Under the pieces are notes generated by a model. That model ran no database searches. It worked only from the letters and a program-made list of their open reading frames with translations, and had not been told where the DNA came from. Shown piece after piece: positions 17,949 through 63,322 of a DNA stretch of 64,000 nucleotides (the first letter of the stretch is position 1; every line of letters starts with the position of its first letter). The DNA lies in IMG/VR virus record IMGVR_UViG_3300023245_000013. One strand, written 5' to 3'. A program made the translations under genes and the position numbers. The stretch comes from a virus.

Positions 17949-18091
17949 CCTGGAGTAGCTCAGTTGGTTAGAGCACCACCCTGATAAATGAGGAAAAGGA
18001 TTGAAACGCAACCTGCGTGGCCACAAGGGTTGTGAAGTAGAGAATTGGAATCGAACGGTGGGGGTCGGGGGTTCGAGCCCTTCCTCCAGGA
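17949..18091 (+). tRNA. tRNA-Ile(GAU) with ~69-nt insertion at the 3' side of the anticodon loop
   Basis: CCTGGAG/CTCCAGG, D arm, CCACC-CTGATAA-[insert 17988-18056]-GGTGG, GGTTCGAGC T loop. Confidence 0.8.
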
Positions 18092-18097
18092 CAATTT

Positions 18098-18264
18098 CCT
18101 GCGATAGCTTAGATATGTTAAAGCACCACACTGATAATGTGGAAGACGAACCGAAAGGACTCAGTTCGGGATGCAAACACAAAAACTCACTTGCGTGGCC
18201 ACAAGAGTGAGTTAGTAGTTGATGTTGAAGAAATGATGGGGGGCAGAACCCTCTCGCGGGACCA
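18098..18264 (+). tRNA. tRNA-Ile(GAU) with ~89-nt insertion at the variable loop/T-stem junction
   Basis: CCTGCGA/TCGCGGG plus ACCA, CCACA-CTGATAA-TGTGG, insert ~18149-18237, non-canonical T loop GGCAGAA. Confidence 0.7.
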
Positions 18265-20221: not shown

Positions 20222-20425
20222 ATGGCTACTGTAGATAACACGAGATATTATATAGAATGGACTTCAAACTATACAGCTAAGCATCGCCCCAGGGTGGCTT
20301 GGACCAAATACTCTGGTCCATATTCCTCGTTACGAAGAGTTATGCAGGCTAAGAAAGATATTCTATCTTCACCGTATTGTGGAGACTGGCTGTATCGGAT
20401 AGCACATTACCACAAGGGGCGTTAG
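20222..20425 (+). CDS. hypothetical protein
   Basis: 67-aa ORF; stop overlaps the tRNA 5' end. Confidence 0.45.
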   Translation: MATVDNTRYYIEWTSNYTAKHRPRVAWTKYSGPYSSLRRVMQAKKDILSSPYCGDWLYRIAHYHKGR

Positions 20426-20487
20426 TTCAGAGGTAGAACATCAGGCTTTAACCCTGTACGTCAGGGGTTCGAACCCCCTACGCCCCT
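20416..20487 (+). tRNA. ochre suppressor tRNA (anticodon UUA)
   Basis: Canonical cloverleaf GGGGCGT/ACGCCCC, GTTC/GAAC D stem, TCAGG-CTTTAAC-CCTGT, AGGGG-TTCGAAC-CCCCT; anticodon TTA at 20448-20450. Confidence 0.85.
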
Positions 20488-20559
20488 CTTGAATTACAGA
20501 TAGAAAAAGGCCGCCCTTCGAACAGTTTTTATATTTGTAAAATTGATTACATTTGTAGA

Positions 20560-38520: not shown

Positions 38521-38604
38521 ATGAAAACACTCCCAAACATAAATTGGTCGTCATCAAGATGGAGTTCTAGGAAAAACCTAGGGCCTGACCGAGTTATGCG
38601 TTAA
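38521..38604 (+). CDS. leader peptide MKTLPNINWSSSRWSSRKNLGPDRVMR
   Basis: A-rich upstream region; nine consecutive Trp/Ser/Arg codons at 38545-38571; followed by a terminator. Confidence 0.75.
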   Translation: MKTLPNINWSSSRWSSRKNLGPDRVMR

Positions 38605-59998: not shown

Positions 59999-60412
59999 AT
60001 GGAAAACTACACTCAAGAAGAAGCTCAAAACATCCTGAACCAGATTAGTTTCGCACCATCTGGAATCCAAATGCACGAAACAGGAAAACCTCAGTTCGAG
60101 ATACAGAAGACAGACGACATATTCTTGCTGAGATGTAGATTCTGGAGACCAGACACTTTAACTGGGGAAATGGGCACTGGCTTTGGCCGAGACTACACAG
60201 CTCCACTAGATACTAGCGAAAAAGGCTTAGTGATGACAGCGTGGCTTGCTTTCGAGCAAATCGTTAAGCATGAGATGATGGAGTCCTTTTTATATAAAGG
60301 AGTTCGCTTATTTAATCCACACAAATCACTAGAAGAACTTGCATATCCAGAGACAATACCAGACAAAAAGCGCTCGTGGTTCAAGAGACAGCTTAGGAAA
60401 ATCTCCGAATAA
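59999..60412 (+). CDS. hypothetical protein
   Basis: Behind promoter motif at 59965. Confidence 0.6.
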   Translation: MENYTQEEAQNILNQISFAPSGIQMHETGKPQFEIQKTDDIFLLRCRFWRPDTLTGEMGTGFGRDYTAPLDTSEKGLVMTAWLAFEQIVKHEMMESFLYKGVRLFNPHKSLEELAYPETIPDKKRSWFKRQLRKISE

Positions 60413-60539
60413 ACAGTTTACTTTACCCCTAAAATGAAGCACTTTTTACCAAAGACATATTTTTTTGAAAAAAACTTTTACTTTTAAAATGCTAACTATC
60501 ATTGAATTACATAATAAATTGAAAATAAACGAGAAAAAA

Positions 60540-60572
60540 CTTGTGAGTTCTAAGTAATCTTTCTATTTTTGC
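60540..60572 (+). promoter_or_regulatory. Bacteroidota-type promoter for the Pro/Asp/Ala/Tyr tRNA operon
   Basis: TATTTTTG box with upstream TTG. Confidence 0.6.
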
Positions 60573-60634
60573 CTCGTATTTATTACCAAGAGCAACTCTT
60601 TTGAGAAGCACTTTTAAAAAACAAAACACATTCA

Positions 60635-60760
60635 ATGTTCAACTTTACAGACATAGCGATTTCAAACCAACCGATGCCGATGGCAGCGACTGGCTGTGCG
60701 CCCGATTATAGCGGGAGCAAGCAGAATGACCTGGTTATGTCTAAACTGAACAACAGTTGA
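60635..60760 (+). CDS. leader peptide MFNFTDIAISNQPMPMAATGCAPDYSGSKQNDLVMSKLNNS
   Basis: A-rich upstream region; contains the antiterminator segment; followed by a terminator. Confidence 0.7.
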   Translation: MFNFTDIAISNQPMPMAATGCAPDYSGSKQNDLVMSKLNNS

Positions 60761-60831
60761 TGTAGAGACATAAACCATTAGGGAAAACCCCCAGGTCATT
60801 CAATCAAACGAATGACCTGGGGGTTTTTTTT
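60724..60831 (+). promoter_or_regulatory. transcription attenuator
   Basis: Terminator CCCCCAGGTCATTC/GAATGACCTGGGGG plus T8; leader GAATGACCTGG (60724-34) duplicates the 3' arm. Confidence 0.8.
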
Positions 60832-60877
60832 GTTTCTGGACTCAACGGAGCCAGAAGATTAATTGAAATATTAATAT

Positions 60878-60951
60878 CGGGAGGAAGTGCAGTCAGGTAG
60901 CACGGGGCATTTGGGATGCTCAGGTCGAGGGTTCAAATCCCTCTCTCCCGA
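60878..60951 (+). tRNA. tRNA-Pro(UGG)
   Basis: GGGCA-TTTGGGA-TGCTC. Confidence 0.9.
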
Positions 60952-61104
60952 CACAAAGTGTTAGTTTACAAGAGTTTCTAGTAAATGTCCACACGAGTAG
61001 GAGTTTTTGAAAACAATAAGAGTTCTTTGACATATTGATAATAAAGTTAATTAAAAAACCCAAGATATTACACCGATGTAATCGTCATAATATCTTGGGA
61101 AAAT

Positions 61105-61178
61105 GGTGGCGCATCATATTGGCGCATGTTGCCTCCCTGTCACGGAGGAGATTGAGGATTCGAATTCCTTCGTCACCG
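61105..61178 (+). tRNA. tRNA-Asp(GUC) copy 1
   Basis: CCTCC-CTGTCAC-GGAGG. Confidence 0.8.
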
Positions 61179-61208
61179 CTTTGGTGCATTAAAGTACCAC
61201 AATTTATT

Positions 61209-61330
61209 ATGGGGAGGAATAATTAATACTTTTTCGCTTTTTACCTGGCAACAGTGTTGATAGAAAGAGTTACTTCGAAAATTAGTATCATAAACTATAA
61301 TTGCAGATTAAGACCTGCCCTCCCCACCAT
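61209..61330 (+). ncRNA. GAGUUACUUC motif RNA copy 4, circularly permuted
   Basis: 3' half (CTTTTTC..TTACCTG), GCAA loop, 5' half (CAGTGTTGATAGAAAGAGTTACTTC), enclosed by GGGGAGG/CCTCCCC. Confidence 0.65.
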
Positions 61331-61341
61331 ATTTAAAAATT

Positions 61342-61409
61342 TTCAGTGTTGAAAGAAGAGTTACTTCGTTATAGGAACATAAAATCACTCTTCTTAGAAT
61401 TACCTGAAA
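61342..61409 (+). ncRNA. GAGUUACUUC motif RNA copy 5
   Basis: TTCAGTGTTGA-AAGAAGAG-TTACTTC-loop-CA-CTCTTCTT-AGAATTACCTGAA. Confidence 0.75.
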
Positions 61410-61413
61410 AAAT

Positions 61414-61487
61414 GGTGGCGCATCATATTGGCGCATGTTGCCTCCCTGTCACGGAGGAGATTGAGGATTCGAATTCCTTCGCTACCG
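61414..61487 (+). tRNA. tRNA-Asp(GUC) copy 2
   Basis: Near-identical to 61105-61178. Confidence 0.8.
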
Positions 61488-61534
61488 CCCTTGGTCATTT
61501 ACGCTTATGACCTTAATAAACAAAAAAACGACAC

Positions 61535-61610
61535 GGTGTGGAGGTGTTGATGGTAACATTTGTCCCTGTCACGGATGAGATTGTGGGTTCGACTCCCATG
61601 CACACCGCCA
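61535..61610 (+). tRNA. tRNA-Asp(GUC)
   Basis: TGTCC-CTGTCAC-GGATG, encoded CCA. Confidence 0.8.
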
Positions 61611-61734
61611 ATTCAATCTTAGGTGCCTTAGGTAGCCGAGTCGCTTCGTCAGCGAAAAAGGACTCACTGAGATGTAGGCGCATTGAGCGTCGCATTAAAG
61701 GCTTGGGGATGACGCCCTGAGATTGATTGTTTAT

Positions 61735-61809
61735 GGGGTTGAAGCATGTGCTGGCTAATGCATCTGTCTGGCAGACAGAAGACCGTGGGTTCAATTCCCA
61801 TCTTCTCCA
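61735..61809 (+). tRNA. tRNA-Ala(GGC), weak acceptor stem
   Basis: TCTGT-CTGGCAG-ACAGA; two U-U mismatches in the acceptor stem. Confidence 0.7.
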
Positions 61810-61902
61810 CAATAAAAGATTAAAGAAAACAGGATATGCGACGAGCGTCTGGTGGGTATTCCCCTCATCAGGTTAAGCCGTTGGGGAACATGTCCTGCTA
61901 AT

Positions 61903-61977
61903 GGGGATGTAGCTCAATTGGCTGAGCGGCTGCCTTGCACGTAGCGTCGTATGTGGGTTCGAGTCCCATCATCTCCA
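61903..61977 (+). tRNA. tRNA-Ala(UGC)
   Basis: GGGGATG/CATCTCC, GCTGC-CTTGCAC-GTAGC. Confidence 0.9.
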
Positions 61978-61980
61978 CAA

Positions 61981-62069
61981 ATTCCAAAACGGTTCGAATC
62001 CGTTGCAGAGAGAAGGCCTCTACTCTGCCCAGTTGTTCGCGACATGCTGGTCCTTGGTTGGTGAGGAAT
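61981..62069 (+). ncRNA. permuted tRNA-like element
   Basis: T arm AACGG-TTCGAAT-CCGTT precedes a loop-closed GCAGAG/CTCTGC stem; enclosed by ATTCC/GGAAT. Confidence 0.45.
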
Positions 62070-62081
62070 CAATTTTTAAAT

Positions 62082-62171
62082 GGGAGTGAGGCAACTATCG
62101 GTTGTGTTGTGCCAGGTTGTAACCCTGGTCCCTCTGGGTAAACGTTGGGGGTTCGAGTCCCTCCACTCTCA
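62082..62171 (+). tRNA. tRNA-Tyr(GUA)
   Basis: CCAGG-TTGTAAC-CCTGG. Confidence 0.85.
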
Positions 62172-62235
62172 CATGGCAGTCATGCCACTTTCTTCGGAAG
62201 TAACCTCAATAGGGGTTGTGAAAAATGACTATTAT

Positions 62236-62326
62236 GGAAGTGAGGTCGACTATCGGTTGTGTCGCACTAGACTGTAAATCTAGTCCCTTTGGGTAAACAA
62301 TGGGGGTTCGAGCCCCTCCGCTTCCA
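62236..62326 (+). tRNA. tRNA-Tyr(GUA)
   Basis: CTAGA-CTGTAAA-TCTAG. Confidence 0.9.
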
Positions 62327-62459
62327 CTTTGATTTCATAAACAAAAGTAACAGTTATGAAATCTTTGTTACTTTTGTAGTCTATTTATAGTAAATTAAAA
62401 ACTTGTGAGTAGAAAAGGAAAGGTTGACCTACAGTCAGTAAGTGATTTTAAAGTCATAG

Positions 62460-62684
62460 AACCAGGTTCAGAAGAAAGAAATCCCAGCTGTTATTAAAAA
62501 TATTGAAGCAAAAGACTTGATTCAAGCTGTAGTTGCAGTCAGAGATTGTAGCAACTCAGCAGCAAGAAGATTGATTTCAGAAGGAGGTGTTCAGGTGGAA
62601 GGAGGTGCGGTAACTGAAAACGGCCCAGTAGAGTCGGGTCAGGTTGTCAAAGTTGGCAAAAGAGAATTCGTTAAGATTTTATAA
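62460..62684 (+). pseudogene. S4 RNA-binding domain resembling the TyrRS C-terminus (no clean start)
   Basis: VQKKEIP...SNSAARRLISEGGVQVEG...VVKVGKREFVKI; in-frame TAG at 62457; upstream GTG 62405 is in another frame. Confidence 0.6.
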
Positions 62685-62687
62685 GTA

Positions 62688-63322
62688 TCAACCCCTCTGA
62701 TTTATTGACCTAATAAGAGCTGTAGAAACACCATTTATTGATTGAATTTGACTCGGAGTTCTTTGGCTTTTAGATTGAATACCAGATATTGGAGCTATTT
62801 CTTGACTATCGGTATAATAAACTTTCAATGCACAACCACGACTTGCAATTGCAATTGGTGTTCCCACAACAGAAGAGACTTCTATGTCAAATCCAAAATC
62901 TGCCTGGTCACCATCTGCCCAAGATAAGCCAGACAAGTCGTTGGGGCCTCCGAGTGTGCCGCCGTAGTAATCGTTCCCACCAACAAAAGTGTTTGTGTAA
63001 AGTATGTTTGAGTATGCTGTTCCATTATACAGGCGAATATTATAAGTTGCCTCTTCATTGGCTCCAGTGGAGCCAGCTGTCCCAATCGCATTAGATGACG
63101 TGCTTCCCGTTAAAACTAATTCTACGCCGTCTATGGTGGCGCCTTCTGGAATCTGAGAGGAATCAAAACAGTTATACCAAGTATTCCGTCTATTAGCTGA
63201 TACAGTAAAGGCAACAGAAGAACCCGCTTGATTTCTGTGTAAACGGATTGCTTGACCCCAAGAACTTGACCTCCCAGGCACAAAATTTGAAAGAGGTCCC
63301 AAAGTTAATGTCTCAGCCATGA
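62688..63322 (-). CDS. hypothetical, probably virion-associated beta-rich protein
   Basis: MAETLTLGP start; G/S/T-rich with IPEGATIDGVEL. Confidence 0.55.

Follow-up and report, generated by a model that had tools for sequence, protein, structure and literature searches.

Leader and tRNA genes at the locus

The stretch of DNA analysed here (the window) comprises 64,000 nucleotides (nt) of the IMG/VR virus record IMGVR_UViG_3300023245_000013, and corresponds to the reverse strand of bases 869-64868 of that 141,051-base record. The record is classed as linear, and its completeness is estimated at 64%. At positions 60,635 to 62,326 of the window, a leader open reading frame (ORF) of 41 codons is followed by an intrinsic terminator and by eight transfer RNA (tRNA) genes for Pro, Asp, Ala and Tyr. 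Judged from its anatomy and its conservation, this locus is quite probably a multivalent leader-peptide attenuator of the trp/ilv style, in which ribosomes on the leader would gate transcription into the phage tRNA genes. The initial annotation, made from the sequence alone, had already proposed a translated leader with Ala-Pro-Asp-Tyr (APDY) as its stall codons. The features of the locus are as follows.

60540..60571, + strand: predicted promoter, TTG at about -33 (60541-43) and, after a 20-nt spacer, TATTTTTG (60564-71), a match to the Bacteroidota -7 box TAnnTTTG
60588..60613, + strand: small hairpin of the 5' untranslated region (UTR) before the leader ORF, from predicted folds
60635..60760, + strand: leader ORF of 41 codons, ATG at 60635 and TGA at 60758-60760, peptide MFNFTDIAISNQPMPMAATGCAPDYSGSKQNDLVMSKLNNS
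60643..60657, + strand: segment 1, predicted anti-antiterminator, CTTTAC-AGACATAGC, from minimum free energy (MFE) folds
60671..60718, + strand: candidate regulatory codon run, CCG ATG CCG ATG GCA GCG ACT GGC TGT GCG CCC GAT TAT AGC GGG (P M P M A A T G C A P D Y S G)
60724..60742, + strand: segment 2, 5' half of the predicted antiterminator, GAATGACCTGG + TTATGTCT, inside the leader ORF
60766..60801, + strand: segment 3, with 3a (AGACATAAAC) at 60766-75 and 3b (CCCCCAGGTCATTC) at 60788-801
60788..60831, + strand: intrinsic terminator, a 14-base-pair (bp) stem rich in G+C (60788-801 with 60810-823), an 8-nt loop and T8 (60824-31)
60878..60952, + strand: tRNA-Pro(UGG), ARAGORN and Rfam
61105..61179, + strand: tRNA-Asp(GUC), atypical copy 1, Rfam 35.8 bits and relaxed-threshold ARAGORN
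61413..61490, + strand: tRNA-Asp(GUC), atypical copy 2, Rfam 35.5 bits and relaxed-threshold ARAGORN
61535..61610, + strand: tRNA-Asp(GUC), default ARAGORN and Rfam
61735..61810, + strand: tRNA-Ala(GGC), ARAGORN and Rfam
61903..61978, + strand: tRNA-Ala(UGC), ARAGORN and Rfam
62082..62172, + strand: tRNA-Tyr(GUA), copy 1, ARAGORN and Rfam
62238..62325, + strand: tRNA-Tyr(GUA), copy 2, ARAGORN and Rfam (28.3 bits)

ARAGORN and Rfam agree on the tRNA content listed at the outset (Pro, three Asp, two Ala and two Tyr). Default ARAGORN misses the two atypical Asp genes; at a low threshold with introns allowed, its calls were mostly false positives, and the intron-free calls with Rfam support were used. 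With these two tools, zero tRNA genes were found in the record outside the window. The terminator and tRNA-Pro are separated by 46 nt without a promoter-like box.

The transcript would start near 60578, as judged from the promoter boxes, which places the leader ATG about 57 nt past the putative start. Both boxes are retained in every relative whose sequence extends that far. A hairpin occupies the same position of the 5' UTR in every relative; in those designated L018 and L005 its sequence differs. The stretch before the leader ATG is A-rich and G-poor and has no Shine-Dalgarno (SD) sequence, as is usual in this genome.

Conservation of the leader ORF

Relatives were found in metagenomes by means of the 137-amino-acid protein of the upstream gene (48-73% identity), the leader peptide and a leader profile. 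Seven homologous leader DNAs were obtained (L010, L018, L019, L002, L005, L020 and L021), which together with the window make eight sequences; L001 and L003 end within the promoter or the leader. Ten distinct leader peptides are available in all when protein matches are included.

All eight sequences keep the terminator and have an uninterrupted + frame of 40-43 codons that begins in a conserved ATTCAATGTTCA context. No other frame survives in all eight, since each is interrupted or lacks its start in some of them; an antisense ORF at 60662-60799 (45 codons) was rejected as a conserved feature for the same reason. The four insertions or deletions within the leader ORF measure 3, 3, 3 and 6 nt, and all are in-frame; those of the 5' UTR and of the stretch from the stop codon to the terminator measure 1, 2, 3 or 5 nt, or are long. 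The leader stop codon lies within the apical loop of the antiterminator in all homologues.

The leader peptide has no Pfam match, and its N- and C-terminal parts vary freely among the relatives. Within segment 2, the replacements N to S (AAT to AGT) and V to G (GTT to GGT) are each offset by a change in segment 3 that restores pairing. Selection within segment 2 therefore acts on the RNA pairing, and not on the peptide. Taken together, the alignment indicates that the ORF behaves as a leader peptide is expected to behave, in that its translation and its codon content appear to matter.

The proposed terminator/antiterminator switch

The 11 nt of GAATGACCTGG at 60724-60734 are identical to 60810-60820 in the 3' arm of the terminator. 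The complementarity extends further, and GTTATGTCT (60734-42) can pair with AGACATAA(A)C (60766-75). Segment 3 thus has two partners: it pairs with segment 2 in the predicted antiterminator, and its part 3b alternatively pairs with segment 4 in the terminator. Only standard pairs occur, both in the antiterminator (19) and in the terminator (14). The terminator has a predicted energy of -33.6 kcal/mol, and was also recovered by a pattern scan, with 20 pairs and the T run. The initial annotation had placed the ORF, the APDY codons, the exact arm copy and the extended pairing correctly; its spacing of 15 nt from the APDY codons to the copy needs a small correction, as 14 nt are counted between TAT (GCG CCC GAT TAT at 60698-60709) and segment 2.

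It had also noted that the same logic, seen twice, makes chance less likely. Among 12 perfect-stem terminator-like hairpins in the 141-kb record, only the one at 60788 has an exact upstream copy of at least 7 nt of its 3' arm; the leader moreover folds much better than its shuffles (z = -6.9). Both results make chance unlikely.

In every homologue, the antiterminator (2:3) is the predicted fold when the transcript ends before segment 4, and the terminator forms when segment 4 is included. Over the alignment of eight sequences, the antiterminator is 99.3% paired, whereas controls with slid partners reach 19-47%. At two of its pairs both bases have been exchanged (A-U to G-C and U-A to G-C), with G-U pairs as intermediates. 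The terminator and its T run are found in all eight homologues, with a stem of merely 9 bp in L018, L020 and L021. These three have lost GAAT or GAGT from the 3' arm of the terminator; the bases of 3b that pair with segment 2 are retained. Since the pairing with segment 2 is kept where the terminator arm has diverged, the upstream copy is under selection of its own. The antiterminator hairpin is more stable than the terminator in four of the eight homologues.

When the leader is folded as if untranslated, segment 1 is predicted to pair with segment 2b and GTAGAG (60762-67). The 9-bp core of the 1:2b helix is 93% paired in the eight sequences, with one compensatory change (L021), which is no better than in shuffles. 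Its outer 6 bp are poorly kept (69% paired).

Composition of the candidate regulatory codon run

APDY is only part of the run that the relatives define. The four codons proposed for the stall belong to it; the run itself is the whole core PMPMAATGxAPDY(SG), which is characterised by a composition of six amino acids, {P,M,A,G,D,Y}. The cores of the window and of five other leaders are given below, with the number of codons from the six-amino-acid set; P0020 and P0022 are two further leaders.

Window: PMPMAATGCAPDY, 11/13
L018: PMPMAATGYAPDYSGG, 14/16
P0020: PMPMAAAAGFAPDYDY, 15/16
L020: PMPMALAAGFAPAYDYDG, 16/18
P0022: PMPMAAAAGYAPDYDY, 16/16
L021: MPQAGAYAGYAPDYDG, 15/16

The background share of {P,M,A,G,D,Y} in the long ORFs of the genome is 28.5%, and that of {P,D,A,Y} is 19.4%. 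The 11 of 13 codons in the window run give a simulated P of 0.0013; 8 of the 13 are from {P,D,A,Y}. The cores of the relatives range from 13/16 to 16/16, and simulation of the best segment gives P values from 0.002 to <5e-5 across the leaders. The core is 13-19 codons long across the leaders, and outside it the share of the six amino acids does not exceed the background.

The same six amino acids are the tRNA identities of the arrays that could be read furthest, those of L002 and L018, which contain tRNAs for Pro, Asp, Ala, Tyr, Gly(UCC), Gly(GCC) and Met; further identities lack good support there. The Gly and Met tRNAs of these arrays therefore explain the Met and Gly codons of the run. No second leader was found before the Gly or Met genes in L002 and L018, and a terminator follows the Met pair in L018. 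It had been suggested that Met, Thr, Gly and Cys tRNAs might be found beyond the window. None was found in this incomplete record; Met and Gly tRNAs are those of L002 and L018, and Thr and Cys tRNAs were found neither in the record nor in these arrays.

The composition of the core is kept among the leaders, and its order and length are variable (AATG, AAAAG, ALAAG, AADAG and AGAYAG; DYSG, DYDYNG and AYDYDG). A peptide selected for a function of its own would not evolve in this way. In L021, the most distant leader, and in L020, many nucleotides of the core differ and the amino-acid composition is retained; the differences include synonymous switches between isoacceptor classes (GGC/GGA and GCG/GCT/GCA).

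The run is built on codons that are rare in the phage (CCG 0.11, CCC 0.07, GCG 0.14, GGC 0.16 and GGG 0.16). Rare codons raise the sensitivity of some classical leaders. Here they could raise sensitivity or simply reflect the G+C-rich hairpins. The core is rich in G+C and folds into hairpins, and its nucleotides are nearly invariant in the five closest relatives.

A second leader at 38521

Another leader of this genome, at 38521, was also described at the outset as unrelated in sequence and similar in logic, and both statements are supported. Comparison of the 38521 and 60635 leaders gave no significant sequence similarity. In the 38521 leader, an unbroken run of nine codons (W S S S R W S S R) is cognate throughout to the anticodons of its own Ser/Arg/Trp array under strict wobble rules. 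This leader is predicted to adopt the same alternative terminator and antiterminator folds, and shares the promoter type, the short ORF and the cognate codon run. In cross-controls, each leader fails against the array of the other (P = 0.64 and 0.44). The two differ in that the last regulatory codons at 38521 lie within its own segment 1, and in that its run is shorter and purer.

Proposed mechanism and alternative explanations

The initial proposal of a translated attenuator is strengthened by three observations given above, namely the frame open in all eight sequences, the covarying antiterminator and the stop codon that always lies in its loop. From this anatomy we infer that the ORF is translated, that ribosomes stall on the run, in which direction the switch works, and that all eight tRNAs depend on read-through. 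A promoter of the host type would start the transcript near 60578, and the leader would be translated while RNA polymerase nears the terminator. When decoding is fast, the ribosome would reach the TGA in the antiterminator loop and cover 2b and 3a; 3b would then pair with segment 4, and transcription would stop. When decoding is slow, a ribosome stalled in PMPMAATGCAPDY(SG) would leave segment 2 free, segments 2 and 3 would pair (19 bp), the terminator would not form, and the tRNAs would be transcribed. In the case of no translation, segment 1 would sequester 2b and the terminator would form. The stall codons would specify the amino acids of the downstream tRNAs, which are Pro, Asp, Ala and Tyr here, with Gly and Met added in the relatives. 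Scarcity of a charged tRNA would thus lead to more tRNA transcripts, a demand-driven circuit; because the tRNAs are themselves the product, it would act as negative feedback on decoding capacity.

Three other explanations can be compared with this one. One is a translation-coupled attenuator with the same anatomy that would respond to translation in general, for example to how many ribosomes are available or how fast they elongate overall after infection, and not to particular codons; the core composition would then be a by-product of G+C-rich hairpins. The predicted hairpins and the G+C-rich rare codons of the core would fit such a sensor, as would the Met and Gly codons that the window keeps without Met and Gly tRNAs. 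It is nevertheless unlikely, since the composition fits the identities of the relatives' arrays (P to <5e-5) and is kept in L021 despite the nucleotide changes, and since the 38521 leader has a different composition that fits its own array, with negative cross-controls. The conserved ATG context, the stop position in the loop, the in-frame insertions and deletions and the frame open in eight of eight speak against an untranslated RNA switch, in which a protein, a ligand or a tRNA would bind the conserved core and control the terminator and antiterminator, the ORF being incidental. In its favour is the near invariance of the core nucleotides in the five closest relatives, enclosed by predicted hairpins; yet L020 and L021 alter many of these nucleotides and keep the amino-acid class. 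Rfam gave no match at the gathering score, and at E <= 5 over 60400-62700 it yielded noise on the terminator hairpin alone and no family, T-box and known leaders included. An untranslated switch is thus very unlikely.

Less likely again is that the ORF is simply a small protein-coding gene followed by a terminator of its own, with the tRNAs transcribed from downstream promoters and no regulatory role for the arm copy. Gene callers did annotate the leader ORF as a gene in several metagenomes, and a conserved TTCTTTGACAT box follows tRNA-Pro. The flanks of the peptide evolve freely, however, and the replacements in segment 2 follow the RNA pairing; the peptide has no Pfam match, and the 46 nt before tRNA-Pro hold no promoter-like box. 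Such a gene would also leave two things unaccounted for: the antiterminator complementarity retained in relatives whose terminator no longer includes it, and an upstream arm copy at this terminator alone among the 12.

Several points weigh against the attenuator model. The enrichment of the window run for its own array {P,D,A,Y} is modest (7-8 of 13 codons, P = 0.02-0.09), and the case therefore rests on the family and not on the sequence of the window alone. The run holds Met, Gly, Thr and Cys codons without a phage tRNA in this 64%-complete record, so the leader has not tracked the array content; the Thr and Cys codons are matched by no array tRNA, and the Cys position varies (C/F/Y). Each amino acid occurs only 1-3 times in the run, and the sensitivity to a single tRNA may therefore be low. 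For the tRNAs present, CCC is not an optimal codon, nor are CCG and GCG, which they read by wobble. Part of the nucleotide conservation of the core among close relatives could be structural, as the predicted hairpins suggest. The homologous leaders represent one lineage, whose peptides are 93% to 49% identical to that of the window. In L005 and L020, both compensatory changes of the antiterminator occur together, probably as one event each. A further point is that no RNA sequencing run containing the leader-region sequence was found. The TTCTTTGACAT box, if an internal promoter, could confine control to tRNA-Pro.

The folding results also need to be considered here. Segment 1 lies upstream of the stall codons and not under them. 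When a stalled ribosome was represented by a mask in equilibrium folding, the MFE structure was still the 1:2 pairing with the terminator, because segment 1, behind the ribosome, stays available. The attenuator model therefore requires co-transcriptional kinetics or queued ribosomes on segment 1, and two queued ribosomes would fit in the 24 codons ahead of the last stall codon. The switch is thus kinetically plausible, and no thermodynamic support for it is claimed.

Relation to known attenuators

Multivalent leader-peptide attenuators are known from enterobacteria (ilvGMEDA, ilvBN and thr), together with trpL, hisL, leuL and pheL. The present leader resembles the ilv/thr type in its short ORF after a promoter, the codon run for several amino acids, the mutually exclusive 2:3 and 3:4 helices, with a putative 1:2 helix, and the intrinsic terminator. 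The spacing is also close to that of trpL, in which about 14 nt separate the stall codons from segment 2, and about 65-70 nt the stop codon from the T run. The differences from the ilv/thr type are also clear. Its targets are biosynthetic enzymes, whereas the target here would be a set of tRNA genes, so that what is sensed is also what is produced. Where those leaders have long runs of one to three amino acids, the present one has six amino acids with 1-4 occurrences each. Segment 1 is placed upstream of the stall codons here instead of under them. Moreover, there is neither sequence similarity nor a match to an Rfam leader family, and the leader is found in a phage with signals of the Bacteroidota type.

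To our knowledge, leader-peptide attenuation is known only for amino-acid biosynthesis and synthetase genes. The attenuators of pheST and hisS are similar to the present one in that a leader peptide controls a component of the decoding apparatus and not a biosynthetic pathway; there the target is a protein-coding synthetase gene and one amino acid is sensed, whereas an array of RNA genes and four to six amino acids are involved here. The hisS leader-peptide attenuator was described in Firmicutes (PMC2965389). In the T-box systems, the decision between terminator and antiterminator is also made by the state of a specific tRNA pool. T-boxes bind uncharged tRNA without translation and control synthetase, transport or biosynthesis genes; in contrast, a conserved ORF and no T-box match are found here. 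In a broad survey of attenuators, all leader peptides listed precede protein genes (PMC2965389), and full-text literature searches turned up no account of tRNA genes under the control of a leader peptide. The genes downstream of the present leader are eight tRNA genes, not the biosynthesis or synthetase proteins of the known leader-peptide attenuators. The departure from the described members is this use of tRNA genes as regulated targets.

Applied to tRNA genes, attenuation would make the product the very molecule that the sensor measures, and the circuit a one-step homeostat for decoding capacity. It also seems likely, with somewhat less assurance than for the attenuator itself, that phages with large arrays sense decoding capacity by codon-matched leaders, each block being switched on only when its tRNAs are short, and that such leaders evolved independently at least twice in this genome. 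Shortage could arise, for instance, from codon-usage mismatch, phage-induced decay of host tRNAs or the anticodon-nuclease defences of the host. If the attenuator model is true, phage tRNA genes would be expressed on demand and not constitutively. This bears on the question why phages carry tRNAs, for codon compensation or as replacements for degraded or cleaved host tRNAs. Small "hypothetical" ORFs in front of tRNA arrays could then be annotated by a rule, and natural compact sensors of codon-specific translation speed would become available. Further cases could be recognised by a run whose composition is conserved while order and length are free, and by an antiterminator kept more strictly than the terminator.

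Other features of the locus

Three further elements were found around the tRNA genes.

60834..60856, + strand: hairpin TTCTGG-ACTCAACGGAG-CCAGAA between the terminator and tRNA-Pro, a motif unique in the genome
61023: (G)TTCTTTGACAT box
62341..62377, + strand: 11-bp hairpin (ACAAAAGTAAC / GTTACTTTTGT) after the last tRNA, read from the sequence

The loop of the hairpin at 60834 is invariant in six sequences, and its stem is altered on both sides in L005; the hairpin is varied in L020 and absent in L021. One possibility is that it may serve as a processing signal. The (G)TTCTTTGACAT box occurs twice in the 141-kb record (61023 and 38771), each time right after the first tRNA behind a leader and terminator, and is retained in relatives (L002:2917-2990, L020:5607-5690 and L021:971-1000). 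Its role could be that of an internal promoter or of a processing site. A long hairpin at 61058-61100 follows the box; its pairing is kept in L002 and L020, where the sequence differs. The unit may end at the hairpin at 62341. At 62400 there is a second promoter-like AAACTTGTGAG box, and behind it, after the Tyr tRNAs, an ORF of 55 amino acids (62517-62684) has a weak match to the S4 RNA-binding domain (E = 2e-4, below the Pfam cut-off). In the whole record, a tRNA with anticodon UUA lies at 20416-20488, and intron-bearing tRNA-Ile genes at 17949-18264.

Relatives and likely host

The content and spacing of the arrays are fluid among the relatives, and the leader is retained. An additional tRNA-Pro(UGG) of 95-97 nt, about 20 nt longer than usual, lies directly past the terminator in four of them (L010:8418-8514, L018:321-415, L019:664-760 and L020:5405-5501); the window has the 75-nt form alone. 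ORFs similar to homing endonucleases are found between the tRNA genes at L019:811-1494 and L002:2095-2922; one has weak GIY-YIG/NUMOD3 matches and the other is 275 amino acids long. In L002, a gene for a low-molecular-weight phosphatase-like protein and a gene for the RNA ligase RtcB flank the terminal pair of Met tRNAs (L002:4640-6685), which points to a link between the tRNA operon and functions in tRNA repair. The contig L004 (12090-12867) carries a CRISPR (clustered regularly interspaced short palindromic repeats) array with at least 12 repeats of 36 nt at the place that the leader occupies in its sister contig L005; beside the array is a Cas12f/TnpB-like gene, inserted between the 137-amino-acid gene and the leader. 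L005 has a single repeat (2911-2949), and then the leader.

Other searches added no homologue. No close relative was found by megablast in the phage collection of GenBank, and none by protein-seeded and pattern scans of IMG/VR; the matches of a ClpB tblastn search were mostly bacterial and uninformative. The sole match to an 18-mer (L006) proved to be an unrelated contig of high G+C, and the candidates L007-L009 and L022-L026 from pattern scans of metagenomes and genomes were chance matches. L016 and L017, with 48% identity in the neighbouring protein, belong to a more distant phage without the leader/terminator design.

The host is probably a member of the Bacteroidota, and several signals point to it. 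An SD-like core lies upstream of only 6 of the 121 long ORFs, compared with a background of 14%, which is a depletion; the regions upstream of the long ORFs are rich in A and poor in G. Both tRNA leaders (60635 and 38521) are preceded by the pair TTG / TAnnTTTG, which we take to be the Bacteroidota promoter consensus from the literature on Bacteroides and Flavobacterium promoters. In addition, one relative encodes a Por_Secre_tail protein. The G+C content of the DNA is about 40%.

Near-identical DNA is present in many metagenome runs from salt lakes. Contigs of four salt-lake runs yielded no variant within the leader, but some of them have the promoter in common with the window and differ beyond it. 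Those of the runs X21-X23, from the same lake, share the promoter at 60543-60589 and diverge at 60589 into other sequence, and in one of them 661 nt are replaced by 676 other letters. Co-occurring relatives thus appear to carry different leaders behind the same promoter.

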